Part shown: in pieces, positions 1,431 to 27,761 of the stretch
Position numbering within the stretch: the stretch's first letter is position 1
Layout: each line of letters starts with the position of its first letter
DNA from: Acidobacteriota bacterium
GTDB taxonomy: Bacteria > Acidobacteriota > Terriglobia > Bryobacterales > JACQDG01
Direction: 5' to 3'
DNA: 39,174 nt
Assembly: GCA_016201185.1 (NCBI GenBank)
Contig: JACQDG010000156.1
Location: 1 to 39,174, forward strand
The notes under the pieces: generated by a model
What the model was told of the DNA's origin: nothing
What the model saw: the letters and a program-made list of their open reading frames with translations, nothing else
Database searches by the model: none
Program-made: the position numbers and the translations under genes

Positions 1431-1439
1431 GAGCGGCTT

Positions 1440-2165: not shown

Positions 2166-2221
2166 GCACCCGCCGGCCGCTGCAAAGGACAATCATTGGA
2201 AGGGAAGATACGCAAGGGGGA

Positions 2222-4705: not shown

Positions 4706-6850
4706 TTGGTTCGAAAGCTGAACGCGGCGTCTCCGCTGCTGGCGTTGTCGCTCTGGATTCCTGGCGCCAGGGTGAGTGCCACAATCACTCAGGCGGGCGC
4801 TCAGAGTCCTCCCGCTTTTGTGCAACGCATTCCGCGGCAGGCCGCGGCGGCCACGGCCGCCATACAAGGCATCGTGCGGAATGAGGATCGTCTGGGCCTG
4901 GGCGGTGTGACGGTCATTCTCCGGGATGTTTCTGGCGGCCAGAGTTTTCAGGCGAACACTACCGGCGACGGCGTCTTCCGCCTGCTCAACTTGCCCGCAG
5001 GCCGCTATGAGATGACCGCTCGGCGGGAAGGGTTCGAGCCCTTTGAGCGAGCGGACATTCCGCTCGCGGCGGGCGACGTTTTCACCTTAGATATGAGTTT
5101 GAAAATGATTCCCGCCGCTGGTCCCATGCGCCTGCGCGAGCTGCCGCGATGGCCGGACCTCGGCCCCTTACCGCCTCCGCCTGCGGCTGCTCCAGCGTCT
5201 CCGTATCACACGCTTACCTGGGCTCCTGCCCCAGGACCTGCCGGCGAGCCGCCACAAGCCTTGCCGCCGGACGACAAGGTCTTTGCTCGCGTGCCAGATC
5301 GCTGGACCTACCAATGGCCAATCTACCGCCGCTACTCCGAGAGTGGCGAGTACCCCTGGACGGTCGGCCACTGGTACGACCCCTTTAGCCGCCACAAGCT
5401 CAAGGGAGACTACCCCCTGTTTGGAAGAACCTTTCTGAACATAACCGGCACCAGCGACACCTTCGTCGATGGCCGACGCCTGCCTACCCCGAGCAACGTC
5501 GGCGCGGAGCGTCCCGGGAGCAAAGAGTTTTTCGGGCGGTCCGGCCAGTTCTTCACCAGTGAAAACCTGAGCTTTTCATTTGATCTCTTCCACGGCGACA
5601 CCTCTTTTCGCCCGATTGACTGGCGCTTCAGGGTAACACCGGAGGTAAACATCAACTACTTCAACGTCAAGGAGAGAGGCATTGTCAACGCCGATGTAAG
5701 GAAAGGGACGACTCGCACCGACGCCCACCTCGGGCTGCAGGAAGCGTTCTTCGAAGTCAAGCTGCACGACCTGAGCCATGACTATGACTTCGTCTCAGCG
5801 CGCGCCGGCATCCAGCCCTTTACCAGCGATTTCCGGGGGTTCATATTCTCCGATCAGGAGCCCGGTTTCCGGCTGTTCGGCAACCTACGTTCCAACCGCT
5901 ACCAGTACAACGCGGCTTATTTTTCCATGCTGGAGAAGGATACGAACAGCGGCCTGAATACCCTGCAGAGCCGCAACCAGCAAGTATTCATTGCAAATCT
6001 TTACCGGCAGGACTTTATCAAGCTGGGTTACACCATCCAGGCCAGCTTTCACTACGACAAGGACGATCCATCCTTTCAACTCGACAACAACAACTTCCTG
6101 GTTCGGCCCGCCCCGATCGGCAACGTGAGAGAGCACAGCATCCGGGCGTATTACCTGGGCGTGGCCGGGGATGGGCATATCGGCCGGATCAACGTCAGTC
6201 ACGCTTTCTATCAGGTCTTAGGCCACGATAAATTCAACCTCATCGCCGGAAGACGTGTGGACATCAATGCGCGCATGGCGGCGCTGGAACTGTCGCGTGA
6301 CAAAGACTGGATGCGGTTCAAGGCGTCATTCTTCTGGGCGTCGGGCGATTCCAACCCCCGCGACGGCCACGCCCACGGGTTTGACGCCATCTTCGACAAC
6401 CCGAATTTTGCCGGAGGTTTTTTCAGTTTCTGGGGCCGGGAGGGAATCCGGCTGACCAGCACCGGGGTCGGTCTGGATGGGTTAAACAGCCTCCTACCGA
6501 GCTTGCGTTCCAGCAAGACACAAGGCCAGGCGAACTTCGTCAATCCCGGGCTGTACCTGTACAATGCGGGGGCGGACCTGGATCTCACGCCCAAGATGCG
6601 CGTCTCCCTCAACGAGAACCTCGTTCGGTTCCACCACACCGCGCCACTGGAACTGCTCCTTTTCCAGAAACCCGTGCACGCCGGAATCGGGTCAGACTCC
6701 AGCATCGGCGCTTCCTATCGCCCGACCTTGTCGGACAACATTATCTTCACCGGCGGCGTCAGTGTTTTCTCTCCGTTCCGGGGCTTCCGGGAAATATATA
6801 CCGGTCAAACGCTGGTCTCGCTTTTCAGCAATATAAGGGTCAGGTTTTAG
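4706..6850 (+). CDS. Outer-membrane beta-barrel protein with an N-terminal carboxypeptidase-regulatory-like (CarboxypepD_reg) domain
   Basis: Signal-peptide-like N-terminus ([15 protein letters not shown]). CarboxypepD_reg-like block [20 protein letters not shown]...[29 protein letters not shown] Pro-rich linker is followed by about 520 aa rich in aromatic, Gly, Asn and Asp residues, ending in ...FSNIRVRF (C-terminal Phe beta-signal). Confidence 0.6.
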
Positions 6851-6870: not shown

Positions 6871-9800
6871 TTGAAAATGTTTGAACTCTTGAAGGGCTCT
6901 GGAACGGCGGCAGGCAGCCGCCATCGTCAACTGGTGCGGTTCGGTTCTCCGGGCCTGGCGGCCGGCCTGTGTCTGCTCTTGTGCCTATTCTTGACGCTTT
7001 CGCCTACTCCCGCCCAGGAAGAGCAGAGGTCGCGGCCATCCGCCGTTTCACGACTCGTCAACGAGACGCAGGCGGAAGCAGACCAAAAGAGCGCCGGTTG
7101 CATCACCTGTCACGTCAAGACGGATGCGCCCACCATGCATACGACTGGAACCGTGCGCCTCGGTTGCGCCGATTGCCATGGCGGGAATGTCGAAGCGCGA
7201 GTCCCGGCCGGAACGGCGCCGGGCTCTGCTGCCTACGAGGAGGCGAAGAAAAAAGCGCATCCGCAGCCCCGCATCCCGAGCCTCTGGAAAGGCTCGGCCA
7301 ATCCAGTGCGCCCCTATACTGGTTGGCTCCAAGAGAGCAAAGAATATATTCAGTTTGTCAATCCCGGTGATCTGCGCGTGGCTGAGCAGACCTGCGGGTC
7401 GGTGGGCTGTCACCCCCAAGAAGTGCGGGCGGTTCGGACCAGCATGATGACGCACGGCGCCATGTTGTGGCAGGCGGCGCTTTACAACAATGGCGGCTTC
7501 CCCTACAAGAATGCCCGGTTTGGCGAGAATTATTCTGCGGACGGTTTACCCCAGCGGATCAGCACCTGGCCGCCGCCGAGCCAGGAGCAAACCAAGAGCA
7601 AGGGCATCCTTCCCCACCTGGATCCGCTTCCTCGCTGGGAGGTTTCCGAGCCCGGCAACGTGCTGCGCGTTTTCGAGCGCGGCGGGGGGCCGCGCCCTGA
7701 GATTGGCAGCCCTAATCCGAAAGAGGATCCCGGCCGGCCCGACGAAAAGTTGAGCGACCGCGGTTTTGGCACGCTGCTGCGGACGGATCCGGTATTTCTC
7801 GGTCTGCAAAAAACACGACTGCTCGACCCGCTGCTTTCGCTTCCCGGCACCAACGACCACCCTGGCGATTATCGCAACAGCGGCTGTTCAGCCTGCCACG
7901 TGATTTACGCCAACGATCGCTCCTCCATCCACTCCGGGTCCTACGCCGTGTACGGCAACCAGGCCAGGAGCGCCGAGGCGGATCCCACTATTCCCCGGAA
8001 TGAATCCGGCCATCCCATCAAGCACGAATTCACTCGCGCCATCCCAACCAGTCAATGCATCGTTTGCCACATCCATCCCGGAACCAATATGGTAGCTACC
8101 TACCTGGGCTACACCTGGTGGGACAACGAGATGGACGGCGAGTTCATGTACCCGAAAAAACAACGTCACCCCACCGACGAAGACAGGTACCGGGCGTGGG
8201 TATCGAATCCGGAGGCAGCCTCGGTGAATGGGCTATGGTCCGACCCCGGCTTTCTGGAGAAAGTTGGCACCCCTGAATTCAACCGGCAGCTCCAGCACAC
8301 CCAGTTTGCCGATTTCCACGGCCACGGCTGGGTGTTCCGCGCCGTTTACAAGAGGGACCGTAAAGGCCGCTTGCTCGACGCCGAAGACCATATCGTCCCG
8401 TTCGGGGACAAGGACAAGTTCCAGAAGGCGGTTCAGCTCCGGGACATCCACCTCGAAAAGGGAATGCACTGCGAGGACTGCCATTTCGCTCAGGATAACC
8501 ACGGCAACGGTAACATTTACGGAGAGACGCGGAACGCTCTCGAAATTGATTGCGTCGATTGCCACGGGACCATCCAGCAGCAAGCTACTCTGCACACGTC
8601 CGGCCCCGCTGCGCCACCGGGCGGCACGGATCTGCAACTGTTGCGCACGCCGTGGGGGCAGCGGCGGTTCTACTGGCAGGACGGTAAGTTGTATCAGCGC
8701 TCCATGGTCGAGAAGGACCGCCTGCCGTGGGAAGTGGTGCAGGCGGTCGATACCATAACCCCCGGCAATCCGCATTACAGCGAAAAATCCCGCCTGGCGA
8801 AAACCATTCTCAAGGACGGCAAGAGCTGGGGAGGCGCGCCGCAGGATGAGTCACAGTTGGCTCACGCGAACAGCAAGATGACCTGCTACGCCTGCCACTC
8901 GTCGTGGACCACCAGTTGCTTCGGGTGCCATCTGCCCATGGCCGCCAACCGCAAGATGCCGATGCTCCACAATGAAGGGCTGACGGCGCGGAATTACACC
9001 ACCTACAACTTTGAGGTCTTGCGCGACGACATTTACATGCTGGGCATTGACGGCACCGTGACCAAGCACCGTATAGCGCCTACGCGCTCCACTTGCGCGG
9101 TGGTGGTGAGCTCCCAGAACGCGAACCGCGGCTGGCTGTACTACATGCAGCAGACGATTTCCGCCGAAGGGTTCAGCGGGTTCGGCTTTAGTCCCTATTA
9201 CCCCCACACCGTGCGCTCCAAAGAAACGAAGAACTGCACGGATTGCCACGTTTCGCAGGCGGGGGACAACAATGCCTGGATGGCGCAGATCCTGATGCAG
9301 GGAACGAATCTTGTGAATTTCATGGGGCGCTACGTTTATGTCGCGATAGGGAATAAGGGGTTTGAGGCGATTTCCGTCGCCGAGCACGATGATCCGCCCG
9401 CCGTGATCGGCAGCGATTTGCAGCGGATCGCCTACCCCGAGAGTTACGAGGAGCATCTCAAACGCCACCGCGAACTCCAGGAAAGCGACCATCATCCGGG
9501 AAACGTTCTGGACGTGCAGTTGCGCGGCGAGTATCTCTACGCCGCACTGGGGGAAGGCGGATTCCGCGTCTATGACGTTGCCAACGTCGACAATAAAGAC
9601 TTCTCGGAAAAGATGGTCACGGCGCCGGTATCTCCGCTGGGACAGCGTTTCTACGTCAAAACCAAGTATGCAGCGGCCATCGCCTCTCCTTCCACACTGG
9701 CCGTCGATCCCCTCCGCACCCGCATCCCGGAAAATGAGGAGCAGCCGATCGCCCTGCTATATGGTTTCCTTTATGTGGCGGACAAGTACGAGGGGCTGGT

Positions 9801-10740
9801 CGTCGTCGGAGATCCAAACCTGAAAAGCAAAAGTCCCGGCGTGCTGACTCTGCTCGACGGAAACCCCGCCAATAACTTTTTGAAGCGGGCCCTGGCGTTC
9901 AACCCCAGCGGAATCCTCAACGGCGCGCGCCGCATCACCATTGGGGGCAATTACGCTTACATTCTCTGCGACCGCGGCCTGGTGGTAGTGAGCCTGGAAA
10001 ATCCTCTGGCTCCCAAGGTCGTTGGCGCGGTGGGAGCGCCGGATCTGGTGGACCCACAGGGCCTGGCGATCCAGTTTCGTTATGCCTTTGTGGTCGACCG
10101 GCAAGGGCTCAAGGTGCTGGATGTAACTTCACTCGAACACCCCCGCGTGGCGCCCGGCGCCTTCGTTCCCTTGCCAGACGCCCGGAACCTCTACGTGGCG
10201 CGCACCTACGCCTACGTGGCCGGGGGCAAGCAAGGACTGGTGATCGTGGATGTCGAGCGTCCGGAGCACCCCTTCCTCGATCAGGCCTTTACGGCCGAGG
10301 GAGAAATCAACGATGCGCGCGATGTGAAAGCCGCCATGACCGCCTCCAGCGCATTTGCTTATGTAGCTGACGGGAAGAACGGCCTGCGTGTGGTTCAATT
10401 GTTTTCTCCCACCGACACCCCCGAATTCCTTGGCTTCAGTCCCCGGCCCAAGCCGAAGCTCATTGCCACGGCCCATACCCGCGGGCCCGCCCTGGCTATC
10501 TCCAAAGGCATCGATCGGGACCGGGCCGTCGATGAAAGTGGAAACCAGTTGACTGTGTTTAACCGGCGCGGGTCACGGCCCTTTAACCGGCAAGAGGGGG
10601 AGCGGCTATACCTGCGCAACGGTCAGCTTTACACGGTGACGAATGACCCGCCGGGGTCACCGGTCCAACTGACGAAGGGCGCGCCGGAAAAACCGATGAA
10701 AGAAGCCAGATCGGATGCGCCTGGTAGAGCCACACGGTAA
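6871..10740 (+). CDS. Multiheme cytochrome c (9 CXXCH plus 1 CX4CH) fused to a C-terminal LVIVD-repeat beta-propeller; secreted or membrane-anchored
   Basis: Hydrophobic N-terminal anchor [16 protein letters not shown]. Heme motifs: CITCH, CADCH, CGSVGCH, CSACH, CIVCH, CEDCH, CVDCH, CYACH, CFGCH and CTDCH (nt 7099..9249). C-terminal repeats: [45 protein letters not shown] and GLRVVQLFS (nt about 9526..10415). The track start is a TTG; an ATG lies two codons later at 6877. Confidence 0.8.
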
Positions 10741-10817
10741 ACACTGGCGTTTTGCCGGCGCTGGGTCGCACGTCTTGGGCAGAAGTCTGGAAGCTTGGCG
10801 GGGAAACGGACCGAATT

Positions 10818-13607: not shown

Positions 13608-15008
13608 TCAGGGTTGAATGGAGGCCCGCCCCGCAGCCGATCCTGGTGAAGGTGATCGCCCGGCCTTGCTCAGAAGTTGCGGGACCGTGAACTTGCCTTT
13701 GACCGGTTTTTCCTGGGTCCAATCGTGGTACAGGTGGCACTCGAAACAGCGGGCCTCGGCGGCTTCAGCCCTGCCAGAGCGATGACATTGCTGGCAAGTG
13801 GCGATCCCTGGCAGCAGCACCTCAGAGGTTTTCTCGCTGGTGGCGGTCTGGACGTGACAGGCCGTGCAAGCCAGCATTTGATGGGCTTGGTGATCAAAGA
13901 TCGCATGGGGAAGCCAGCGCACCGTAATGGCGGACTTGGCTACATCGGGCAGCGACGCGCCGGCCGCAAAGCTGAGCGTGTGGCATTCTTTGCAGGTCTT
14001 CTCCCACAGGAGCAGTTCCGCGTCCTCCACGCGTTGCTCCACCCACTCGGCTGCATTCCGCGGCGCCGGTCGAGGGGGCCGGCCCGGTATCCTCGCTTCG
14101 GCCAAGCTCGGTTTGCGCAACTCTTCGGGATGGGCGGCGATGTACTCGGTAAACTTCTTGACCACGAAGTTGTAAACCACCTTCGGCTCTTTATGGGGTA
14201 CCGGCTCCCGAAATCGCTCGTCGAAATAAAGAGGATGGCAGGCGGAACAACTCTCGCTGTAATGGATGGTCGCCATATAGGCCCTCGCCGATACGCGGGC
14301 CGGTAAGGGCTGGGGCGGCGGCTCGGAAAGAGCCACTGTGGAAAGCTCCGCCTGGCCGAAGGGCCACGGCTCTTTCCCTCCCGGCGGCCGGTGGCAGTCG
14401 GCGCACTGCAACTGCACGGGTCCATGAGGGCCGCGCAGATCTGCTTTGAGGTGTATCTTGTGGTTCAACTTGATCGCGCCCGGGTCGCTGCGGCCGGGGC
14501 GCACCGAAGCGAACTCCGGATGCCCGCCGTTGAATTCCGTGATGTTGGCCGCGAAGCTCGGATGCCCGTCTTTGGTCTGCAAGCTGGCATGGCACCGGGT
14601 ACAAGCCCGGTCACTCGTTTGTGCCAATCGGACGGCGCCCACGTGTTCGACGTGACAGGACCCGCAAGAGGGGGTAAAGACCTGCTTTGCCTGATGGACG
14701 GGGCCGTCGTGGCAGGAGAGGCACGCTTGATCCGTCGCCTTCTTAAGGAAGATGTGGCTGACGTGACAAGCCGCGCAGTTGAGACCAAAGACAGCGTGCG
14801 AATGCGCCACGGGGCCGCCGGTGTAAACGTGCTGGTTGCCGGCGAGCCCCTCCCAACCCAGCCAAACGAGACCCAGGGCGACCAAACCTATGGAGAGAAT
14901 GCGGCGCCAGCGGGGCAGGGGATACAGGCGCTTGAAGTAATCCAGCTGGATGCGCTGTGCAAGTTTCTTTGTAGTCCGCGTTCTTCCCGGCACAGCGCTT
15001 CTCCTCAC
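13608..15008 (-). CDS. Membrane-anchored periplasmic decaheme cytochrome c with c3/c7-like modules
   Basis: N-terminal TM anchor ILSIGLVALGLVWLGW. Ten CXXCH motifs: CAACH, CLSCH, CGSCH, CTRCH, CADCH, CSACH, CKECH, CTACH, CQQCH and CFECH. FDHQAHQMLACTACH resembles the c7/c3 F.H..H....C..CH pattern. The GTG start directly abuts the upstream stop (TGAGTG). Confidence 0.85.
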   Translation of the reverse strand: MRRSAVPGRTRTTKKLAQRIQLDYFKRLYPLPRWRRILSIGLVALGLVWLGWEGLAGNQHVYTGGPVAHSHAVFGLNCAACHVSHIFLKKATDQACLSCHDGPVHQAKQVFTPSCGSCHVEHVGAVRLAQTSDRACTRCHASLQTKDGHPSFAANITEFNGGHPEFASVRPGRSDPGAIKLNHKIHLKADLRGPHGPVQLQCADCHRPPGGKEPWPFGQAELSTVALSEPPPQPLPARVSARAYMATIHYSESCSACHPLYFDERFREPVPHKEPKVVYNFVVKKFTEYIAAHPEELRKPSLAEARIPGRPPRPAPRNAAEWVEQRVEDAELLLWEKTCKECHTLSFAAGASLPDVAKSAITVRWLPHAIFDHQAHQMLACTACHVQTATSEKTSEVLLPGIATCQQCHRSGRAEAAEARCFECHLYHDWTQEKPVKGKFTVPQLLSKAGRSPSPGSAAGRASIQP

Positions 15009-15917
15009 TCAGTACCGCAGCGCGATCACTGCGTGAACTGACGCCAAGACCAAGAGGGCTATCGACAATGGGACATGGACCAGCAGCCACCCGTGCAGCC
15101 AATGGTAGAGACGAATCTGGCGGCTCAACTGGCGCTCTTCCTCCCAGATGTTTCCCAGGTTGTCCACCAGAGGGTGCAGTGGGACGGGCAGGAGCACCCG
15201 CAGCGACTGGAAAACTTCCTCGGCCCGTTGAGGAATGGCAAGCTCGGCGCCCGGCGCGCCCGGGTTCTCCAGGAACGGTCGCATCTTTTGGAGGTAGATT
15301 TCGCGAAAACGCTCCCTGGCTTCCTCCTCCACTTCGACCAGCGTGGCTACCGCCGCAGCCCCCTGCGCCGTGATTCGGTCCGAAACGGCTTGAGTTTGGC
15401 CCGCGCTGATCCCTAAAGGCCCGCAAACGGCGGCTGCCAGTTCGTCGGCTTCCCCTAGCAGTTGTTCGCGTACGTGCGGTATCTCTTCATAGATCGTTTC
15501 CATCGGCGCCTGCACAGTCATCATTTGAGGCAGATAATGCTGGAGCGCGGCGCCCAGCACCCCGCTGGCGATCACAATAAAGAACAGCACCATCAAGACG
15601 GTTGTCAAAGGTCCCCGAAAAGCGAAGCCGCTGTGGAACAGGATCAGAGGCAGGCTGACCAGTCCCAGCCAGAGATGACCCCTCATCCAGGTCTGGGCCC
15701 GGCCAATGCGCCAGACCGGTACTTTCTTGCGCGCTCCTAGCAAGCCGGCATACAACATCAATCCGTAGCCGATAATGCCGTAAGTGATCCCCAGCGTGCT
15801 GCCGCCGCTCGGTCCGCTCGGCGATCGCAGGACGTACGGTATGTAAATAGTGACGCCGGCGACCAGCAGGACCAGGGAGGCAATCATCCAGGGCCGGTGG
15901 GCTCCATCGATTCGCAT
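15009..15917 (-). CDS. Integral membrane protein (about 5 TM) with two H-x13-H pairs; putative di-heme b-type transmembrane electron carrier of unknown family
   Basis: Predicted TM helices at about aa 10-30, 42-62, 80-100, 104-127 and 273-300. H81-x13-H95 (HLWLGLVSLPLILFH) and H281-x13-H295 (HVPLSIALLVLASVH). A soluble helical insert of about 140 aa lies between TM4 and TM5. A GAGG RBS precedes the ATG, 9 nt after the upstream stop. Confidence 0.55.
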   Translation of the reverse strand: MRIDGAHRPWMIASLVLLVAGVTIYIPYVLRSPSGPSGGSTLGITYGIIGYGLMLYAGLLGARKKVPVWRIGRAQTWMRGHLWLGLVSLPLILFHSGFAFRGPLTTVLMVLFFIVIASGVLGAALQHYLPQMMTVQAPMETIYEEIPHVREQLLGEADELAAAVCGPLGISAGQTQAVSDRITAQGAAAVATLVEVEEEARERFREIYLQKMRPFLENPGAPGAELAIPQRAEEVFQSLRVLLPVPLHPLVDNLGNIWEEERQLSRQIRLYHWLHGWLLVHVPLSIALLVLASVHAVIALRY

Positions 15918-15926
15918 CGTACCTCG

Positions 15927-18089
15927 CTAGCGATCGGCAGACCTCCCCTGCGGCGCCCCCACAAGCCCGCTGAAGAACGTGTTGGGGTCCACCCGGTGAG
16001 CGGCATCGTGCGGGCAAGCGTACACGCAACTGGGTTCTACATGTTCCGTGCAAAGATCGCAGGAAGTAGCTTTTTGCTTGACAACAGCGACCTCTCGCTC
16101 CGGGGCAGCCGGATCCTTCGCATATACGGTGAAGGGGTGCATGTTGATGTTGCCGTACGGACAATTTTTGGCGCACAGGCCGCAGCCGATGCACCAGTCT
16201 TCGATAATTACCTCCAGAGAATTACGACGCCGGATAGAGCCCACCGGACAGCCCACCATACACAGAGGATCGCGACACTGCCGGCAGGAGGTGGCCACCA
16301 GATACTTGTCGAAGCGCACTCCTTCACGGATTAAGCGGGTTACGCCGTCGTGGGCGTCGGCGCAGGCGCGCACGCAGTTGTCACAGCGCGTGCACCGCTC
16401 CAGGTCGAGCACCAGCAAGCTTTGGGCCTCCATCAGGCCCTGGGCCAGAAACCGTTCGAGAGGGACGCTGGACGCGGCCGCGAGACGTTGTCGGTTTTGT
16501 TCCTCGCGCTCTTGGGCCACGGCTTCCAGACTACGCCGGACTTCGGGGAAGGCTAGCGTCATGCGGTGGAAATCTTCGCCATGGATACGGACCACCTCCA
16601 CGTGATCCAGCGCCGTGCAAGTGGCAGTGCGCCGACCCTCGCCTAGCAAACCCATCTCGCCGAAGTAGCCGCCGCGGCCCAGATAGGCCAGCACAAGCTC
16701 CCCTCCGGGGTGTATTTCGGAGACCTTTACAAAGCCGATGCGAACGAGATAGAAGCTGTCGGCTATGTCGCCCTGGCGGCAGATGACATCACCCTTGGAA
16801 TAACGCACCAGCTCCACCCTATCGCGCAGCGAATCGATGAAATCCTGGGTGAGCGTGGCGAATACAGGAACGCTGCGCAAATGGTCGTCGAGAGCGCGCC
16901 GCCGGTAGTTTTCCTCGATCTGCGCTTTGAGCGTCTTGTTCCTTTGCATGATGTCGAGGACGTTGCGCAGCATTTCTAGCATGGTGCAGTCGGTAGCAGC
17001 GCGAACGGTGGCGGAGCGCGGATACAGGCTCATGCAGGTCATTTCGCCGAACAGGTCGCCCGGACCAAGCTCGGCGACGGGATTTTCATAGGGCAGATCC
17101 ACCGGCGCATCAATCGGGATCATGCGGCGGTCCGCTTCTTCCGCGCGGCGATTCTCCCGCCGCCCGGCGAGACGGCTGGTGAGCTTGCTCAAGAAGCCCG
17201 TAGCGCCGCCCTCCGTCTTGACGTGGGCCAGGGGAGCGGAAAGGAACACCTGGGCCTTCCCCTGGAGGATATAGAATGCCGTGGAGCCGTACTCTCCTTC
17301 CCGGCAGACAATGTCTCCTTTCCGGAAGCGGCGAAGGACAATAGCGTTCTTATTCAGATCCAGGAAGGTCCCCGATACCTTCTGGAAGTAAGGCAATTGC
17401 AGCAACTCCTCCACGTTCACCGGCTCGCCTTGGGGCAAGACCGTCTTCACGACACTTTTGTTTGTCAGGGCGCCGGTGGGGCAGGAGACCATGCATTCCC
17501 CGCACGAAACGCAGGAAGAATAGCCCATGGGCTGGTTGTGATCGAAAGCGATGCCGGTCTGGTAACCTTTTCCCCTGCGGCCGAGCACGTCGTTGTGGCG
17601 GATTTCATCGCACCCGCGAATGCAACGATCGCAGAGGATGCAGGCCTCGTGGTCCACGGAGATCACAAAGGAGGTGTCATCCTGCCCGCGGGGCGAGAGG
17701 CGGCGGGCAAACCGCGGCTGGGTGACACCCTCCGTCCTGGCCAACATCTCGAGCTCGCAGTCGCCCGACTGTCGCTGGCGGGCGCAGGGGCTGGGATGGT
17801 CCGTCATCAGCAATTCGACCAGGGTACGGCGCACGTTTCTTACCTTTTCCGAGGTGGTGGAAATCACCATGCCGTTCTCCGCCAGTCGAATGCAAGAGGC
17901 GGCCAAAACACGGCCGCCTACATCCACCGCGCAAACGCGACAGACGCCCACCGGCGCTTCGTTCTGCTGGTGGCAAAGGGTGGGGATGGAGATGCCGTGG
18001 ATGCGGGCCGCATCGAAGATGGTAGTATCGGAAGGGACCGAAATCGGCCGGCCGTCGATGGTCAGTTGAACCTGGCTGTCCGAGCTCAT
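15927..18089 (-). CDS. Multidomain Fe-S protein: HoxU/NuoG-N-terminal-like [2Fe-2S] plus [4Fe-4S] module, two cyclic-nucleotide-binding domains, and a DmsB/HybA-like four-cluster ferredoxin
   Basis: N-terminus: LTIDGRPI...TLCH..(x)..CRVC..(x)..C ([2Fe-2S]), HPSPC...C, CILCDRCIRGC and CVSCGECMVSCP. cNMP domains: FRKGDIVCREGEYGSTAFYILQG...GPGDLFGEM...RSATVRA and YSKGDVICRQGDIADSFYLVRIG...GRGGYFGEMGLL...RTATCTA. C-terminus: CTRCDNCVRAC, CRQCRDPLCMVGCP, CIGCGLCAKNCP and CDLCTEHVEPSCVYACP. I chose the start at MSSDSQVQ, whose ATG overlaps the upstream TGA (ATGA at 18086..18089). No signal or Tat motif is present. Confidence 0.8.
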   Translation of the reverse strand: MSSDSQVQLTIDGRPISVPSDTTIFDAARIHGISIPTLCHQQNEAPVGVCRVCAVDVGGRVLAASCIRLAENGMVISTTSEKVRNVRRTLVELLMTDHPSPCARQRQSGDCELEMLARTEGVTQPRFARRLSPRGQDDTSFVISVDHEACILCDRCIRGCDEIRHNDVLGRRGKGYQTGIAFDHNQPMGYSSCVSCGECMVSCPTGALTNKSVVKTVLPQGEPVNVEELLQLPYFQKVSGTFLDLNKNAIVLRRFRKGDIVCREGEYGSTAFYILQGKAQVFLSAPLAHVKTEGGATGFLSKLTSRLAGRRENRRAEEADRRMIPIDAPVDLPYENPVAELGPGDLFGEMTCMSLYPRSATVRAATDCTMLEMLRNVLDIMQRNKTLKAQIEENYRRRALDDHLRSVPVFATLTQDFIDSLRDRVELVRYSKGDVICRQGDIADSFYLVRIGFVKVSEIHPGGELVLAYLGRGGYFGEMGLLGEGRRTATCTALDHVEVVRIHGEDFHRMTLAFPEVRRSLEAVAQEREEQNRQRLAAASSVPLERFLAQGLMEAQSLLVLDLERCTRCDNCVRACADAHDGVTRLIREGVRFDKYLVATSCRQCRDPLCMVGCPVGSIRRRNSLEVIIEDWCIGCGLCAKNCPYGNINMHPFTVYAKDPAAPEREVAVVKQKATSCDLCTEHVEPSCVYACPHDAAHRVDPNTFFSGLVGAPQGRSADR
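16557..17399 (-). other. Domain region: tandem cyclic-nucleotide-binding (CAP-effector-like) domains embedded between the Fe-S modules
   Basis: Two copies of the beta-roll signature (G.LFGEM / GYFGEMGLL followed by R[ST]ATV/C.A). The first copy carries an insertion of about 50 aa (FLSAPLAHVKTEGG...DLPYENP). Confidence 0.7.
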
Positions 18090-19765
18090 ACCAGCCTCTC
18101 TTCGCGCATGGGGCAGACCCTTTCGGGGCATTCCCGGCGGAGGATATGGGCCTCGACTTCTTTCCGGAAATGCTGCAGCACGGAAGTTATCGGTGCATGG
18201 GCGAATTGCCCCAGACCGCAAATGGAGGTCAGGCGCAGGGCGTCAGAGAGTTCATCCACCAACTGCAGATCAGCCGGTGAGCCTTTGCCTTGCGTCCAGC
18301 CGGTGAGGATGTCCACCAGTTTCTGGGAACCCATGCGGCAAGGTACGCACTTGCCGCAAGACTCGTTGCGGAAGAACTTCACTGCGTTCAAAGCCATGTC
18401 GAGCATACACCTGCCTTCGGCACAGACCACGATGGCACCCGAACCCAGCATGGAGCCGGCCGCGGCCATCGACTTGAAGTCGAGATGGACATCCACCAGG
18501 GAGGCCGGAAGATAGCCTGAAGACGGACCGGAAGGGGCAAAAGCCTTGAGTTGCTTGCCGTCGGGGGGACCGCCGGCGAGATTAAGAATCACCTCCGAGG
18601 CCGGCGTACCCATAGGGATTTCGAATACCCCCGGTTTACGCACATCGCCGCTGACGCCCACCATCTTCAAGCCGGCAGCTCCACCCTGTCCCTGGGTCTT
18701 ATACCATTCCACGCCGTTGGTCAGAATCTGAGGCACGTGGGCGAAGGTCTCGACGTTGTTGAGCACGGTCGGTTTGTTCCAGAGCCCATGGGTGACAGGG
18801 AAGGGCGGTTTGTTGCGGGGTTCGGCGCGCTTGCCTTCGATAGCTTCTAGCAAAGCGCTCTCCTCGCCGCAGATATAACCGCCCGGGCTGACGAAGATTT
18901 CCAGCTCGAAGGGGAGGTCAGACCCGAGCACCTGCAGCCCCAGGATGCCGTCTTGCTTGCATTTGTGAATCTCTTCGTCCAGGATCCTTTCCTGAACGCC
19001 GTACTCATGGCGAATGTAAAGGACACCCTTACGCGCCCCGGCCACCAACCCGGCGATGATCATCCCCTCGATGACGAGGTGGGGCAGGTGGTGCATGATG
19101 AAGCGGTCTTTGATGGTACCGGGCTCGCTCTCGTCAGCGTTGCACACGACGTACTTCTCCGTGCCCGGAGCTTTGCGAACGGCCTCCCACTTGACCCCCG
19201 TGGGAAAGCCAGCGCCTCCCATGCCGCTCAGTCCGCTGGCCTTTAAGGTCGCAATGACGCCGTCCCAGTCCCGGGTCTGGACCAGGCGCCGAAGTGCGCC
19301 GTAACGCGTGGCGCCCTTATAAGGGTCGGAAGCGAGATCCGTCCGCCTGTTTTCCACGGGCTGCTCCGGCAACTCACTGCCTCCCAGGGCGGCGAAGACC
19401 AGAGCCTCGGCCTGGGCCCCGGTGACCCCGCGGTAAATGTGGTCATTGACGGAAATAGCGGGGGCCCCGTCACATTGCCCCAAACAGGAGGTCTCGCGAA
19501 CAGAAACCTCGCTCTCGCCCAACGGCAGGAACCGCTGCTTGAGCTCGGCGCGCAACGGCTCGGCCCCTCTCAGGTGGCAAGACATGTCAGAGCAAACCCG
19601 CAGATTCACCTTGGCCGCAGGCGTCAGATAGAAATGAGGATAAAAGCTTGCCACGCCATGCAGGCGATAGAGGGGGATCTTGGTCTTCTTGGACAGCGCC
19701 TCCAAATGCTCGGCTGGCAGATAACCGTATTGACGCTGAATGGCCCTGAGTTCTTCGAAGATCAC
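18086..19765 (-). CDS. NuoE-NuoF fusion: NAD(P)H-binding FMN/Fe-S diaphorase subunit (HoxEF / NADH dehydrogenase 24-kDa plus 51-kDa type)
   Basis: NuoE-like N-terminus (GVASFYPHF...RVCSDMSCHLRG...CLGQCDGAPA). NuoF motifs GLSGMGGAGFPTGVKW, YVVCNADESEPGT.KDR, ICGEESALLEAIEGKR.EPR.KPPFP and the N3 cluster ESCGKCVPCRMG...CGLG. GTG start, with a possible TTG one codon upstream, after an AGGAG. Confidence 0.85.
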   Translation of the reverse strand: MIFEELRAIQRQYGYLPAEHLEALSKKTKIPLYRLHGVASFYPHFYLTPAAKVNLRVCSDMSCHLRGAEPLRAELKQRFLPLGESEVSVRETSCLGQCDGAPAISVNDHIYRGVTGAQAEALVFAALGGSELPEQPVENRRTDLASDPYKGATRYGALRRLVQTRDWDGVIATLKASGLSGMGGAGFPTGVKWEAVRKAPGTEKYVVCNADESEPGTIKDRFIMHHLPHLVIEGMIIAGLVAGARKGVLYIRHEYGVQERILDEEIHKCKQDGILGLQVLGSDLPFELEIFVSPGGYICGEESALLEAIEGKRAEPRNKPPFPVTHGLWNKPTVLNNVETFAHVPQILTNGVEWYKTQGQGGAAGLKMVGVSGDVRKPGVFEIPMGTPASEVILNLAGGPPDGKQLKAFAPSGPSSGYLPASLVDVHLDFKSMAAAGSMLGSGAIVVCAEGRCMLDMALNAVKFFRNESCGKCVPCRMGSQKLVDILTGWTQGKGSPADLQLVDELSDALRLTSICGLGQFAHAPITSVLQHFRKEVEAHILRRECPERVCPMREERLV

Positions 19766-19910
19766 AAGGCTCGCTCTCCTGTTCTAGAAGTCAGTCGGGT
19801 TTGTCCAGAATGCCTAGGGAATCATAACATTGATCTGCCCATCGAGCGAAAAACAATACCGGCGGACCGCTGGTTTCGGCTCCAGCTCTCTCTTATGTAC
19901 CGCTCTCTCT

Positions 19911-19939
19911 ATTGACTTCTGCCGTCGTGTAGAGTATAA
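19911..19939 (+). promoter_or_regulatory. Candidate sigma70-type promoter for the cytochrome/GlcG pair (-35 TTGACT, 17-bp spacer, -10 TATAAA)
   Basis: TTGACT at 19911..19916 and TATAAA at 19934..19939, about 70 nt upstream of the ATG at 20008, in the 242-bp divergent intergenic region. Confidence 0.5.
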
Positions 19940-20007
19940 ACGTCTGCGTTGTTCGGAGTAAATCCAGTGCGGCCTCGTGCGGTAGAGCAGACGCCTGAGG
20001 CCCTCCT

Positions 20008-21369
20008 ATGAGCCTGGTTCGCACCAGCTACATTTCACTTCTGGCGGTGTGGGCGGAAAGCGCCGTGGCTTGCCTGCTGATGGGGGGCGGGACTCTGCTT
20101 GCCGCTGAGGCCCCCCAAAGCAGCGCCTTGACATCGGAGGCCTCCAAGTTTACCGGGCCGGGTTCGTGCAGCTCCACCAGTTGCCATGGTGGCGTGCAGC
20201 CCCGGGCGGAAACCTCCGTTCGGCAAAATGAGTACAGCCTCTGGGTAGTGCGGGACAAACATGCCCACGCCTTTGCTGTGCTCTCGAATCCGGTTGGGAC
20301 ACGGATGGCTCGTATTCTGGGGCTGCCTCGGGCAGACACTGCTGAGAAGTGCCTGGCCTGTCACGCCCTGAATCCTCCTCCGGACCAGCGCGCCAAGACC
20401 TTCTCCGACCTCACCGACGGGGTAAGCTGTGAAGCCTGTCATGGGCCGGCGTCCAACTGGCTGGGCCCGCATACCACCCGCGGCTGGGCTTACGAGAAGT
20501 CGCTCCAAGCAGGCATGTACAATACCCGCGACCTGATCAAACGGAGCGAGAAGTGTCTCTCCTGCCATTTGGGCAATGAGGAAAAGTTTGTCGATCACGA
20601 GATGATTGCGGCCGGCCACCCCGACCTGTATTTCGAACTGGACTCCTTTTCGGCGGCGATGCCCCGGCATTGGAAAGAGCCGCTGGACAAGGATCCCTGG
20701 CTGGGGGTGCGAACGTTGGGCACGGGGCAGGCGGTGCAATTGCGGGAGCATCTGAGGCGCGTAGCCCGGCGGGCTCAGGGAAGCATCTGGCCGGAATTCT
20801 CCGAACTGCAATGCTTCGCCTGTCATCATGATTTGACGGCCGCGAAAGACAGTTGGAGGCAGGAACGTGGCTATCCGGGGCGGCGTCCGGGCGACCCGCC
20901 GTTCAATATGTCCCGCTATTCTATTTTCCGTCAGGTGGTTTACGAAGTGGACCGGCAGGAGGGCGGCCAGCTCGATTCCCAGCTCAACAAGCTGTTTGGC
21001 CTGATGAGTGAGCTCTCGGCCGACCGCAAGCAGGTCGTGGCTGCGGCCGAGAGTTCAGCCGAACTGGCTGACCGGCTGGCTCGCCGGATCGCCTCACTGC
21101 AATTCGACCAGGGGATGACCATGCGTTTGCTCAAAAGCATTTCCGGCGACGCTGACTACATCGCAGGGCAAGGTGAGCGGTCGGCCGAGCAGGCAGCCAT
21201 GGCGCTGGATTCTCTTTTCATCGCTTACATCCAGAGCGCGAAAATGGGAAACGAGCAGCAAGTCCGAGCGGCCATTAACTCCCTTTTCCAGGAACTGTCG
21301 AATCCTTCCGCCTATAATGCTTACACTTTCGCCCGTGAGGTGCATAAGTTGAATGCTTTGCTGCCGTAG
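20008..21369 (+). CDS. Secreted multiheme cytochrome c (cytochrome c554-family-like; 4 CXXCH plus 1 CX4CH) with a helical C-terminal domain of unknown function
   Basis: Signal peptide (LLAVWAESAVACLLMGGGTLLAAEA). Heme motifs CSSTSCH, CLACH, CEACH, CLSCH and CFACH. W..RDKHAHAF after the first motif resembles the c554-family layout. The last roughly 170 aa contain no Cys or heme motifs. Confidence 0.7.
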   Translation: MSLVRTSYISLLAVWAESAVACLLMGGGTLLAAEAPQSSALTSEASKFTGPGSCSSTSCHGGVQPRAETSVRQNEYSLWVVRDKHAHAFAVLSNPVGTRMARILGLPRADTAEKCLACHALNPPPDQRAKTFSDLTDGVSCEACHGPASNWLGPHTTRGWAYEKSLQAGMYNTRDLIKRSEKCLSCHLGNEEKFVDHEMIAAGHPDLYFELDSFSAAMPRHWKEPLDKDPWLGVRTLGTGQAVQLREHLRRVARRAQGSIWPEFSELQCFACHHDLTAAKDSWRQERGYPGRRPGDPPFNMSRYSIFRQVVYEVDRQEGGQLDSQLNKLFGLMSELSADRKQVVAAAESSAELADRLARRIASLQFDQGMTMRLLKSISGDADYIAGQGERSAEQAAMALDSLFIAYIQSAKMGNEQQVRAAINSLFQELSNPSAYNAYTFAREVHKLNALLP

Positions 21370-21386: not shown

Positions 21387-23009
21387 ATGCCCAGGGACCA
21401 TAACAAGTCGCGTTCCCGGAGGGCCATCCTGGCGATCCGTAACCTTATCATGCTGGTCTTGGTGGCGGCTGCCTCGCTAATCTGGGGGAACGGCCGCGGG
21501 GCCGACTCCGATCGCGCCATCCCGACCGTGCGCTTCCCACGCGTTCACCACGTCCCGCGAGCCCCCCACTTCAACAATTTCGACCCTCGCCCGATCCTGA
21601 CTGCCGGCGACGTGCAATCCGTTGTTCAACGCGCGGCCGAATCGCTGGATTCCACCGCCATGGTCATCGCCGTGACGGATCGCCAGGGCGACGTCCTGGC
21701 GCTATATCGGAAGCCTGGCGCCCCCCCAACGGCCGTGGGCAACTTCAGCATGATGGTTGACACCAACGAGCTGGCCGTTGCTTTAGCCCGTACGGCGTCG
21801 TTTTTCAGCAACAACCAGGCGCCCCTTTCCACGCGCACGGTTCGTTTCATCAGCGGCATTCATTTCCCTCCCGGGATTCCTTTCACCCCAAACGCGGCCC
21901 TCTACGGTATTGAGAATACCAACCGGGGCTGTCCGGTGAATGCCGATTTCATCCCGGGCCAGGAGGTTCCTCCCGCCCGTACCATCGACAGGACGCGGCC
22001 GGGGCTGGGAATCATTACCGGCAAAGCAGACCTGAACGACAGCGACAGCAACGCGGTGAATCCCGGAGGGGTCCCGCTGTTCAAGCAAGGGCAGTTGGTA
22101 GGCGGGGTCGGGGTTGCCGGCGTCTCTCCTAACCTGGTTGAATATGCCGCGTTTTCCGGCGCGGCCCGTGCGGGATTCGAGCCTTCGCCGGCGCCGCCCG
22201 AAGTGGTGATTATCGACGGTCTCGCCTTGCCTTTCGTCGATCAGAAAGCACAGCCTGCGGGAACAGGACCGGGGGCATTCGATGCCGCAAACTTCCTGAT
22301 CCCCCCGCGCGGCAGTCCCAAGCCGGCTCCGGAGGGCGACCTGGTAGCGCCCAAAGCCGGCCCCTTGGGTGGCCTGACGGCAGAAGAGGTCCGCCACATT
22401 ATTGATGCGGCAGTGGCAACAGCCGATCAGACACGGGGCGTGATCCGGCTGCCGCTGGGCTCGCGCGCTCGGATGGCGATAGCGGTCGCGGATCTGGACG
22501 GTACGATCCTGGCGTTGCACCGGATGCCGGATGCAACCATTTTCAGTATTGATGTGGCGGTGGCCAAGTCACGCAACGTGATTTACTTCAGCAGCGCGCA
22601 GCGCAGGCCGGAGGACCTCCCGGGCGTCCCCATGGGCACGGCGGTCAACAACAGGACCATCAGTTTCGGGGCGCAACCTCTCTTTCCGCCGGGCATTAAC
22701 TTCAGCCAGCCGGGGCCATTTTTTGATCTCTACAAATGGGATACGGCCAATCCTTGTACGCAAGGCTTTCAGGCTCCCAATTCCAACCAAAGCGGAATCG
22801 TATTTTTCCCGGGCAGTCTTCCGCTTTACAGGAATGCGGTGCTGGTGGGCGGGCTGGGCGTCAGCGGCGATGGAGTGGAACAGGACGACTTTGTCACCGC
22901 CGGCGCGGCGCAAGGCCTGGACGCTCCCGAGTCGATCCGGGCGGACCAGATCATAATCCGGGGAGTGCGACTCCCCTACCTGAAATTCCCTCGCAATCCG
23001 ACCCAATGA
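21387..23009 (+). CDS. Membrane-anchored or secreted protein with two tandem GlcG/HbpS-like (DUF336, heme-binding/degrading-like) domains
   Basis: N-terminal anchor AIRNLIMLVLVAAASLIW. Module 1: LTAGDVQSVVQRAAE...MVIAVTDRQGDVLALYR...GGVPLFKQGQLVGGVGVAGV. Module 2: LTAEEVRHIIDAAVA...IAVADLDGTILALHR...IDVAVAKSRN...GSLPLYRNAVLVGGLGVSGDGVEQDD. It starts 18 nt after the cytochrome stop. Confidence 0.6.
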   Translation: MPRDHNKSRSRRAILAIRNLIMLVLVAAASLIWGNGRGADSDRAIPTVRFPRVHHVPRAPHFNNFDPRPILTAGDVQSVVQRAAESLDSTAMVIAVTDRQGDVLALYRKPGAPPTAVGNFSMMVDTNELAVALARTASFFSNNQAPLSTRTVRFISGIHFPPGIPFTPNAALYGIENTNRGCPVNADFIPGQEVPPARTIDRTRPGLGIITGKADLNDSDSNAVNPGGVPLFKQGQLVGGVGVAGVSPNLVEYAAFSGAARAGFEPSPAPPEVVIIDGLALPFVDQKAQPAGTGPGAFDAANFLIPPRGSPKPAPEGDLVAPKAGPLGGLTAEEVRHIIDAAVATADQTRGVIRLPLGSRARMAIAVADLDGTILALHRMPDATIFSIDVAVAKSRNVIYFSSAQRRPEDLPGVPMGTAVNNRTISFGAQPLFPPGINFSQPGPFFDLYKWDTANPCTQGFQAPNSNQSGIVFFPGSLPLYRNAVLVGGLGVSGDGVEQDDFVTAGAAQGLDAPESIRADQIIIRGVRLPYLKFPRNPTQ

Positions 23010-27247: not shown

Positions 27248-27719
27248 TTCAATCGTCTTCTTATAAACCGAGAGGAGGCGGGATAACCGGCGTTCGGATC
27301 GGGCGAAAAGCCATAAGGGGAGATGGCGCAAATGCCATAGACCGCTATGCTGCAAGCTCTCATCCACCCCCTGCGCGGTATGAACCTTAGGCCATTGCTG
27401 GATCCCAGACCAGTCACTCTACCATAAGCCCAGGGTGCGAGAATGATACAGAATTTCCTTCGTCGGCCTAACGACCAGATCGTCGGAAAAGGCGCACGCT
27501 GCTCTCCGGACGCGTGATGAGGGCAGAAAACCTGGCTTAGATCTTCACAGACCATTGCAATTTTACGTGCCTTTGCCTGCCCAGTCAAGGCCCATTCTTC
27601 CTATTCTTCCAGGAGCTTCCAGATGCAAAGAAACAGAGAAGTGCCGGTCTGTTTTGCCCATAGCAATGCCGGGAAGCGGGCGGCCGCGCTGAAGGAGCGA
27701 TGCCAAAGCCACCGGATCG

Positions 27720-27745: not shown

Positions 27746-27761
27746 TGCGTAGGTGCTGCAG

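Follow-up and report, generated by a model that had tools for sequence, protein, structure and literature searches.

The known routes of extracellular electron transfer in Gram-negative bacteria start from quinol (CymA, ImcH, CbcL). In the FdnH-FdnI and NarH-NarI pairs, four-cluster iron-sulfur (Fe-S) proteins are docked on di-haem cytochromes b, and in the Tmc, Hmc and DsrMKJOP systems of sulfate reducers transmembrane electron transfer is carried out by a cytoplasmic Fe-S protein together with a cytochrome b in the membrane and a multihaem cytochrome c in the periplasm. The ptdABCDEFG cluster, named in marine Alpha- and Gammaproteobacteria, Nitrospirales and Planctomycetes, encodes a pentahaem cytochrome related to T. 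tepidum c552 (PtdA; PDB entry 5ZE8), the porin PtdB, an FAD/NAD(P) oxidoreductase (PtdC), a tetrahaem cytochrome (PtdD), a 4Fe-4S protein that binds cyclic nucleotides (cNMP; PtdE), a 'ferric reductase-like' transmembrane (TM) protein (PtdF) and a periplasmic decahaem cytochrome (PtdG), and its function was stated by its authors to be 'completely unknown' (bioRxiv 10.1101/2023.11.21.568154). Here, we describe a four-gene operon, g1 to g4, on a 39,174-nt contig of an Acidobacteria metagenome-assembled genome (MAG; GenBank contig JACQDG010000156.1); this whole contig is the window, and all coordinates are window positions (Table 1) unless a related locus is named. The operon encodes an NADH flavoprotein (g1), an Fe-S protein with tandem cyclic-nucleotide-binding (CNB) domains (g2), a five-helix membrane protein (g3) and a decahaem cytochrome c (g4). 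Judged from the sequences, the best reading of the system is a kind of transmembrane Fe-S/haem b/multihaem c conduit with a built-in second-messenger receptor.

The comparison with ptd, made by described architecture only, finds the same trio in the same order (CNB-FeS protein, TM protein, decahaem). The c554-like pentahaem cytochrome encoded next to the operon matches 5ZE8, the PDB entry to which PtdA is related, both clusters include an NAD(P)H flavoprotein (in loci related to ours, an NDH-2 fused to a CNB domain, NDH-2-CNB), and both occur in Planctomycetes. The differences are the NADH module (a NuoE-NuoF flavoprotein, and a HoxU head that forms one polypeptide with the CNB-FeS protein), undescribed in the ptd preprint, the LVIVD decahaem, p630-family and HbpS-like proteins found here where ptd has the PtdB porin and the PtdD tetrahaem, and the hosts, which are soil Acidobacteriota here and marine lineages there. 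The ptd preprint had thus already pointed out the core trio, as the uncharacterised ptdEFG; no paper describing the NuoEF/HoxU-fused form was found in the literature, and no solved, curated or characterised homologue was found for g3 or for the whole assembly. An initial annotation of this stretch, made from the sequence alone, had known of no characterised complex with this composition, and domain, PDB and literature searches found none. The EET1 (porin-NHL-cytochrome) and EET2 (MtrC/DmsE/porin) clusters of a 2026 preprint on acidobacteria in peat are different clusters, and that preprint makes no mention of NuoF, HoxU, cNMP or LVIVD; the Tenderiales uet paper, in which LVIVD appears only as an attachment protein, is unrelated. 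Tmc, Hmc and DsrMKJOP, compared from general knowledge, have the transmembrane logic in common with the operon but use NarI-family cytochromes b and HdrD-like CCG proteins, are linked to sulfite or disulfide reduction, and have no NuoEF, HoxU or CNB module. The sole sequence signals towards Dsr and Hmc are weak NCBIfam matches to DsrO and HmcA, far below cut-off.

The four open reading frames (ORFs), read from the sequence, are packed on the minus strand at 13608-19765, exactly as first annotated. The genes g1 and g2 overlap by ATGA (18086-18089), g2 and g3 are separated by a 9-nt gap (15918-15926, TAG-CGAGGTACG-ATG), and g3 runs into a GTG codon as TGAGTG (15006-15011). All three junctions had been read correctly, but TGAGTG is likely not the start of g4. 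A second in-frame GTG (14993-14991) is preceded by AGGAG 7 nt upstream, an ideal spacing, and the alignments of g4 orthologs mostly start at about residue 6, so the true start is probably 14993 and the g3-g4 gap 15 nt instead of 0. Even with this start the four genes are tightly coupled, with no junction longer than 15 nt, and co-directional genes, coupling-type junctions and a conserved order together mark them as an operon. AGGAG also lies 8-13 nt ahead of the GTG start of g1. The divergent intergenic region upstream contains one sigma-70-like match (19962-19933, minus strand), and in the promoter scan of the window such matches are no more frequent than the shuffle expectation. Consensus scans gave no internal promoter or terminator signals above chance within the operon, the Rfam scan of the window, including 19766..20007, gave no family, and the tRNA scan of the window gave no tRNA.

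The order of the genes is conserved far beyond the window, in agreement with what the initial annotation had expected of a genuine unit. In a scan of one genome per GTDB species, 263 genomes encode a g3 relative; the best 80 of the 263, which were analysed, are nearly all labelled Bryobacterales, Terriglobia, 'Acidiferrales' or other Acidobacteriota, and conservation figures below refer to these 80 orthologous loci mapped onto the window proteins unless stated otherwise. Sixty-nine of them show the full order g1-g2-g3-g4, 10 are cut by contig ends, and one (L047), the sole exception with full flanks, is reduced to a minimal form in which both NuoEF and the HoxU head are missing, so that the order holds in 69/70 loci with enough upstream DNA. 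In a metagenome scan seeded with distant family members, which returned mostly soil contigs, NuoEF, HoxU head, CNB, four-cluster tail, g3 and g4 are present in 44/44 loci with enough upstream DNA, at g3 identities to the window protein of 43-63%. Combined, 113/114 loci with enough flank keep the gene order, which is more than chance. The MAG of L047 is labelled Dormiibacterota and that of L040 Limnocylindrales, while both are acidobacterial-type by identity; their placement possibly reflects binning contamination or horizontal transfer.

The product of g1 had been taken for a NuoE-NuoF fusion, and this is confirmed by its Pfam and NCBIfam domains (2Fe-2S_thioredx of NuoE, Complex1_51K with 144.6 bits in Pfam, SLBB, NADH_4Fe-4S) and by near-full-length alignments with FdsB (7e5z_B, residues 2-533) and HoxF (5xf9_A, residues 15-541). 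The best solved relatives are HydB, HoxF, FdsB and Nqo1, with E values down to 1.7e-122; the alignments with HydB (406.8 bits) and Nqo1 extend over the core region. The predicted cofactors are FMN, bound next to an NADH site, a [2Fe-2S] cluster and an N3-type [4Fe-4S] cluster. The NuoE-type [2Fe-2S] ligands C58, C63, C94 and C98 (C-x4-C...C-x3-C) and the N3 ligands C470, C473, C476 and C516 are 100% conserved, and the motifs CNADESEPGT, GEE, ESCGKCVPCR and CGLGQ are 96-100% conserved, while the loop positions S180 and M182 vary in orthologs (R, P or L). The FMN/NADH, N3 and [2Fe-2S] features of the NuoE/NuoF (HoxF, FdsB) group are therefore all present in g1, and the degenerate motifs that would have spoken against an active module were not found. 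Together with the head of g2, g1 aligns with HoxFU, the NuoEFG N-module and FdsBG, with the FMN, N3 and 2Fe-2S ligands intact. Unlike in these systems, no hydrogenase, formate dehydrogenase or complex I partner was found in the window or within the 8-10 kb that flank the related loci; likewise, as first annotated, the window encodes no molybdo- or hydrogenase catalytic subunit and no NrfD-like anchor, and g3 matches no such family. An electron-bifurcating, HydABC-like function was set aside for g1, because its alignment stops at the end of the HydB core and it is without the C-terminal two-cluster ferredoxin domain of HydB.

The g2 protein is the most conserved of the four (~80% identity), and g4 is the least. 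The g2 protein had been described as an Fe-S wire with a HoxU-like head and a four-cluster tail; both ends are borne out, but the tandem CNB module between them had been overlooked. The head contains Fer2_4 and NuoG/HoxU-type clusters, with matches to HoxU (PRK07569, E 4e-49, residues 7-213) and, among NCBIfam profiles, to the N-terminus of group A6 FeFe-hydrogenases (E 1.6e-61), and it also aligns with the N-termini of HydA and NuoG in the PDB. The Cys residues of its [2Fe-2S] site (C39, C50, C53, C66) and of two ferredoxin-type [4Fe-4S] sites of the form CxxCxxCxxxC (C150-C160 and C193-C203) are 100% conserved. The head differs from HoxU in being fused to the CNB and four-cluster modules and in its His-ligated site, which is incomplete by one Cys (H98-x3-C102-x2-Q105-x5-C111, window 17757-17798).

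The tail of g2 contains 16 Cys residues in four groups (C566-C692, 99-100% conserved), as do the four-cluster beta subunits FdnH, DmsB, NrfC, HybA and HydN. BLASTP matches it over its whole length to E. coli FdnH (E 3e-10), and the four Cys groups of the two proteins all coincide in this alignment; its NCBIfam matches are HydN, DmsB and DsrO, the first two below their equivalog cut-offs. The earlier statement that four-cluster proteins normally dock on NrfD/DmsC-type anchors was incomplete, as FdnH-FdnI and NarH-NarI use di-haem cytochromes b. No partner of the NrfD/DmsC or FdnI/NarI type was found for the tail, and the adjacent g3 matches none of them. Since g2 has no TM segment and no Tat or Sec signal, the four-cluster tail is predicted to be cytoplasmic; g1, also without TM segment or signal sequence, is assigned to the cytoplasmic side.

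The tandem CNB module is the most conserved and the most unusual feature. Pfam recognizes two cNMP_binding domains at residues ~240-545, scoring 133.8 bits where the cut-off is 27.5, and a match to a PKA regulatory subunit (3of1) spans residues 335-510. Both phosphate-binding cassettes, FGEMTCMSLYPRSATV and FGEMGLLGEGRRTAT, are intact and read FGE...PRSATV and FGE...RTAT, in keeping with the FGE ... R-[ST]-A cassette expected of a CNB domain; conservation of their residues is 97-100%, both among 75 close orthologs and among the 66-71 that are more distant. CNB-A carries a disordered, low-confidence insert of ~50 residues (285-334). In the AlphaFold2 (AF2) model the pLDDT is 80-92 within the CNB domains, and the model of the whole protein is poor (pLDDT 67, pTM 0.40), with the Fe-S regions and the insert unmodelled.

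The g3 protein contains five hydrophobic helices and, as had been noticed, two H-x13-H pairs, H81/H95 and H281/H295, each spaced by 13 residues. All four His residues are 100% conserved in the 80 orthologs, and across 75 diverse members of the family H81, H95 and H281 are invariant while H295 is at least 90% conserved. Hydropathy and the positive-inside rule give a topology with the N-terminus inside, five TM helices and the C-terminus outside. The Arg/Lys-rich loop 63-80 (6 Arg/Lys) is assigned to the cytoplasmic side, where also a helical domain of ~140 residues (130-270) is located between TM4 and TM5. The AF2 model of g3 is confident (pLDDT 92.4, pTM 0.83), and by its helix positions the four conserved His residues lie on two TM helices, one pair per leaflet. 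Hydropathy rules and the AF2 model together place H81 and H281 near the cytoplasmic face and H95 and H295 near the periplasmic face. An almost invariant motif, VPMETIYEEIPHVR, follows directly after TM4 (residues 137-150, window 15468-15509), and its E140 is at least 90% conserved throughout the family; the motif is a candidate for the surface at which the Fe-S tail docks or its electrons enter. Planctomycete homologs of g3 have disordered inserts of 300-550 residues between TM4 and TM5, with many 'KKSPLELAREQ'-like repeats (L083 10001-12388, P0150, P0257).

The sequence of g3 is identical to the NCBI entry 'hypothetical protein HY236_06355' and has no match in Pfam (none at E<=0.01) or NCBIfam. 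At least 3589 homologs exist, all named 'hypothetical', and at E<=1e-3 the family comprises 2390 clusters at 50% identity. The family profile finds nothing below E=1 among PDB sequences. A lax Pfam scan of the 75 members returned DUF4405 in 47, Ferric_reduct in 25 and Ni_hydr_CYTB in 18, all sub-threshold (best Ferric_reduct E 2.8e-4). Because such weak cytochrome b matches recur and the H-x13-H pairs are invariant, our best guess is that g3 is a di-haem b cytochrome with bis-His ligation, and it probably represents a new family working like a two-haem cytochrome b. The likeness to FdnGHI and NarGHI lies in the homology of the g2 tail to FdnH and in the two His pairs of g3 on two TM helices; the differences are that g3 has no detectable homology to FdnI or NarI, that no molybdoenzyme is present, and that here the periplasmic partner would be a decahaem cytochrome c and not quinone, with an Fe-S subunit that would be fed by NADH. 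The NOX/FRE NADPH oxidases and MsrQ-Fre resemble the proposed system in the use of NAD(P)H, a flavin and two stacked bis-His haems b without quinone, in haem pairs held by H-x13-H on two helices, and in an extracytoplasmic acceptor. From this ferric-reductase superfamily g3 differs by its five TM helices and the 140-residue cytoplasmic insert, and by a donor that would be an Fe-S chain instead of a bound flavin domain.

The g4 protein has a single TM segment (residues 37-56) and exactly 10 CXXCH motifs, which agrees with its first description as a membrane-anchored decahaem cytochrome. The 10 motifs and exactly 10 further invariant His residues are ~100% conserved, and the latter are enough for bis-His ligation of all ten haems. 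In Pfam it matches Cytochrome_C7 (48.5 bits), Paired_CXXCH and c3, and with its CXXCH motifs, distal His residues and predicted extracytoplasmic location it conforms to the multihaem cytochromes c of the c3/c7 type. The N-terminus is basic, with 12 Arg/Lys in the first 36 residues, and is followed by the TM helix and the haem domain. By the positive-inside rule this arrangement of a basic N-terminus and a single anchor gives an N-in/C-out topology, from which the haem domain is predicted to be periplasmic. The expected topology, with the decahaem outside and the flavoprotein and Fe-S protein inside, is thus supported by hydropathy and the positive-inside rule. Neither g4 nor the LVIVD decahaem has a meaningful match among PDB sequences.

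Outside the acidobacterial-type loci the operon is found in a reduced form. The order CNB-FeS (without HoxU head), g3-like protein, decahaem occurs in five loci (L081, L083, L084, L085, L170), at least two of which are Planctomycetota: L083 is from Thalassoroseus pseudoceratinae, a cultured planctomycete that carries this core trio, and L170 is from a Phycisphaerales MAG. The distant g4 homolog of L084 also has 10 CXXCH motifs. Minimal-core loci often include c554-like, LVIVD, p630 and HbpS-like genes; L084 and L085 add NDH-2-CNB, and L084 also a cyclase and an Apyc1-like metallo-beta-lactamase (MBL) protein. The NADH flavoprotein varies between NuoEF with a fused HoxU head and NDH-2-CNB, and the sequences define a core of CNB-FeS protein, g3 and decahaem, to which an NADH module is added in two forms. 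Parts of the set also occur apart. A g3-g4 pair stands with cytochromes and no adjacent Fe-S protein in L082, the CNB-FeS protein stands alone in L168, and a pair of NuoEF and HoxU-CNB-four-cluster protein is encoded in a Planctomycetota MAG (L166 8204-12328, and L167).

The initial annotation had described g1-g4 as a four-gene operon. The gene set and the order are as described, but the operon does not stand alone: it makes up the inner-membrane portion of a larger cluster, in which ~8-10 genes are conserved (Table 1); the counts of neighbours among the 80 loci are limited by flank length. The divergent pentahaem gene (Pfam Cytochrome_C554; PDB matches 1bvb and 5ze8) is in the same position in 57/80 loci and also occurs in Planctomycetota loci, and the HbpS-like gene that follows it is in 43/80 loci and in L085 and L170. 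The LVIVD decahaem (9 CXXCH and 1 CX4CH, with a weak ExtM-like match) is convergent to the operon, is found in 44/80 loci, usually directly after g4, and also in L084, L085 and L170; it is a candidate distal or terminal redox partner. It is always preceded by the p630-family gene (33/80 loci), whose product in the window is 49% identical to the 630-residue protein of L085 (family range 630-714 residues). Counted with g4, the proteins of the cluster contain 25 c-type haem motifs. In at least nine Bryobacterales loci the cluster includes a type-II NADH dehydrogenase (NDH-2) that ends in a fused CNB domain and, by its domains, would be a second NADH enzyme with a cyclic-nucleotide domain for the cluster. 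Genes for class III adenylate/guanylate cyclases adjoin g4 or p630 in several relatives, and these fit local cyclic-nucleotide signalling. Neither NDH-2-CNB nor cyclase genes are present in the window.

Table 1. Features of the operon and of the surrounding cluster (window positions unless a related locus is named).
Feature	Position	Strand	Description
g1	18086..19765	minus	NuoE-NuoF fusion flavoprotein, HoxF/FdsB-type, 559 aa
g2	15927..18089	minus	Fe-S protein, 720 aa; ATG start overlaps g1 stop
g2 residues 1-225	17415..18089	minus	HoxU/NuoG-N-terminal-like module
g2 residues ~240-545	16455..17372	minus	tandem cyclic-nucleotide-binding domains CNB-A and CNB-B
g2 residues 555-720	15927..16427	minus	four-cluster [4Fe-4S] tail, FdnH/DmsB/HydN type
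g3	15009..15917	minus	5-TM protein, 302 aa, putative di-haem b cytochrome
g4	13608..15008	minus	decahaem c-type cytochrome, 466 aa (461 aa if start 14993)
Intergenic region g1/c554-like gene	19766..20007		242 nt, divergent
c554/c552-like pentahaem cytochrome	20008..21369	plus	453 aa, 4 CXXCH and 1 CX4CH
Exported HbpS-like (GlcG/DUF336) protein	21387..23009	plus	540 aa, Pfam HbpS-like
Exported decahaem with C-terminal LVIVD beta-propeller region	6871..10740	plus	1289 aa, Pfam LVIVD
Exported CarboxypepD_reg protein, p630 family	4706..6850	plus	714 aa, Pfam
NDH-2-CNB (related loci)	L016, L021, L023-L026, L035, L048, L079 positions 1-1341; L084 15830-17467; L085 14018-15655		
Cyclase genes (related loci)	L060-L062, L071, L073 ~10235-11283 minus; L105, L107, L165, L156; L084 12432-14183		

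The window also contains genes of other kinds. A GH63/MGH1-like glycoside hydrolase gene (10752-13505) is located between g4 and the LVIVD decahaem; since it is so placed in only 8/80 loci, it is probably unrelated cargo. The HbpS-like gene is followed by a gene for an MBL-fold hydrolase (23015-23836), with homologs in 4/80 loci; this protein has only the metal motif in common with the Apyc1-like MBL of L084, and a role as cNMP phosphodiesterase is not claimed. Sugar and pentose-phosphate genes (6-phosphogluconate-dehydrogenase-like, ROK kinase, glucose-6-phosphate dehydrogenase and transketolase-like) are found at 447-3718 and 31294-33549 and are not conserved beside the operon in relatives (glucose-6-phosphate dehydrogenase in 1/80 loci). 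A surface protein of 1129 residues with Big_3_5/BACON domains (23978-27367) and an outer-membrane barrel of 1082 residues with CarboxypepD_reg and TonB-dependent-receptor-like regions (27753-31001) have no evident link to the operon.

Gene structure, domain content, ligand conservation, simple topology and synteny across phyla are supported directly by the analyses above. From here on we infer complex formation, haem b binding, the direction of flow, gating, the acceptor and the independence from quinone. The suggestion that an NAD(P)H module is wired to periplasmic multihaem cytochromes had been put forward as the most economical reading, and in architecture it still is, although the CNB module and the wider cluster had been missed. 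In the mechanism proposed here, NADH would reduce the FMN of the HoxF-type g1, and the electrons would cross its N3-type [4Fe-4S] cluster to g2, where they would enter one [2Fe-2S] and two [4Fe-4S] clusters in the HoxU-like head and continue to the FdnH-like four-cluster tail. This tail would dock on g3 at the conserved helical domain on its cytoplasmic side. Across the membrane the electrons would be carried by two haems b of g3 with bis-His ligation (H81/H281, followed by H95/H295) and delivered to the membrane-anchored decahaem g4, and from there they may pass through the pentahaem c554-like protein and the LVIVD decahaem to a periplasmic or extracellular acceptor, e.g. humic matter, Fe(III) or Mn(IV). 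The flow would be switched or tuned by cAMP or cGMP bound to the CNB tandem, which is placed between the two Fe-S modules of g2.

Whether the four products form one membrane-bound complex of this kind, by which NADH in the cytoplasm would reduce multihaem cytochromes c on the periplasmic side under cyclic-nucleotide control, we regard as evenly balanced on the present sequence evidence. A single complex is proposed because of the tight junctions, the one orientation and the order conserved down to 43% g3 identity, and the ~100% conservation of the FMN, Fe-S, His and CXXCH ligands adds support. The docking of g2 on g3 is suggested by the homology of the g2 tail to FdnH, which docks on a di-haem b, gating by the conserved CNB cassettes and the cyclase genes that adjoin the cluster in several loci, and the link between NADH and the core by the two different flavoprotein forms (NuoEF/HoxU and NDH-2-CNB). 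The NADH couple (-320 mV) and the inside-negative membrane potential favour the outward direction.

Several observations weigh against this proposal. A Foldseek search of the PDB with the g3 model found no relative, the best TM-score being 0.37, alignment of the g3 family with E. coli MsrQ, YodB, NarI and FdnI by hhalign gave probabilities below 1%, and no profile of a two-haem cytochrome b family matches g3 significantly. With hhalign and Foldseek both null, homology of g3 to known cytochromes b cannot be claimed, and the generic helical-bundle matches (TorS sensor, ABC exporters; TM-score <=0.37) were rejected. In the head of g2, Gln105 replaces the canonical second Cys in 94-96% of orthologs, and the His-ligated [4Fe-4S] cluster may be absent or unusually ligated, while the AF2 model of g2 is too poor to judge the distance between the two Fe-S modules. 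In L166 and L167 both g3 and g4 are missing from the 10 kb around the soluble pair, which can therefore stand alone, and the NDH-2-CNB genes in the same clusters hint at the involvement of quinone. Moreover, an outward NADH drain that does not pump conserves no energy, and the cell could profit from it only through redox balancing or through the reduction of an acceptor. The more specific form of the proposal, a quinone-independent NADH:multihaem-cytochrome oxidoreductase with a new di-haem family, in which cAMP or cGMP on the CNB tandem opens and closes the path, is offered as a tentative possibility.

The alternative that survives best, though we consider it unlikely, is a quinone-coupled system in which g3 is a quinone- or quinol-interacting cytochrome b, functionally like CymA, CbcL, ImcH, NarI or FdnI. 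It would act either within a non-pumping NADH:quinone oxidoreductase (g1-g2-g3) or within a quinol:cytochrome c oxidoreductase (g3-g4) supplemented by the NADH module. To our knowledge, quinone binding is common to every di-haem b partner that has been characterised for an FdnH/NarH-type subunit, NDH-2 is itself a quinone reductase and its CNB fusion lies in the clusters of L084, L085 and the Bryobacterales loci, and the g3-g4 pair of L082 has cytochromes but no Fe-S protein beside it. This is opposed by the absence of sequence or fold similarity between g3 and the known quinone-binding cytochromes b, by the NADH-to-Fe-S chain on the cytoplasmic face, which would be redundant if quinol were the donor, and by the CNB-FeS protein being the most conserved partner of g3 across phyla.

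It is quite improbable that g1 and g2 form an independent, cyclic-nucleotide-regulated NADH:acceptor oxidoreductase (with, e.g., a ferredoxin-like acceptor) which is co-regulated with g3-g4 and not wired to them. Such a pair would account for L166, L167 and the solitary CNB-FeS protein of L168. However, in 113/114 loci only a few bases separate g2 from the g3 that follows it, the headless CNB-FeS directly precedes g3 in the five loci of other lineages (at least two Planctomycetota), and the strongly conserved cytoplasmic domain and motif of g3 have no other obvious partner.

Operation in the inward direction, from a periplasmic or extracellular donor through the multihaem cytochromes to the reduction of cytoplasmic NAD+, appears very improbable. 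HoxFU/NuoEF modules are reversible in principle and a cytochrome chain is direction-neutral, but electrons would have to move against the inside-negative potential and uphill to -320 mV from typical multihaem potentials, no ion-pumping subunit and no bifurcating HydB-type extra clusters were found, and the hosts are soil and peat heterotroph lineages. Least probable of all is a sensing device with negligible flux, in which the Fe-S, CNB and haem chain reports the periplasmic redox state or the cyclic-nucleotide level: CNB domains are classic sensors, cyclase genes are near some loci and HbpS-like proteins, one of which is encoded nearby, are linked to redox sensing in Streptomyces, but g1-g4 have no HTH, kinase, GGDEF or cyclase output domain in Pfam or NCBIfam, and a complete NADH dehydrogenase module with 12 haems and no fewer than 7 Fe-S clusters goes far beyond what a sensor would require.

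If the proposed NADH-driven conduit is correct, it would provide a direct route from the NADH pool to extracytoplasmic multihaem cytochromes, possibly bypassing quinone. It would also be, as far as we found, the first electron-transfer chain known to contain a receptor for cyclic nucleotides within the wire itself, and second-messenger signalling would be linked directly to respiratory flux. The g3 protein defines a large unannotated membrane-protein family without a Pfam, NCBIfam or PDB relative, and no fewer than 263 species-level genomes, the majority from Bryobacterales and Terriglobia, encode a relative of it. The presence of the core in the cultured T. pseudoceratinae makes the idea experimentally accessible. 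Bryobacterales and Terriglobia dominate soils and peat, and the system would be relevant to the coupling of anaerobic carbon oxidation to Fe(III) or humic acceptors in these environments. For soil and peat Acidobacteriota it would mean a regulated dumping of reducing power, with a minimal form in Planctomycetota.

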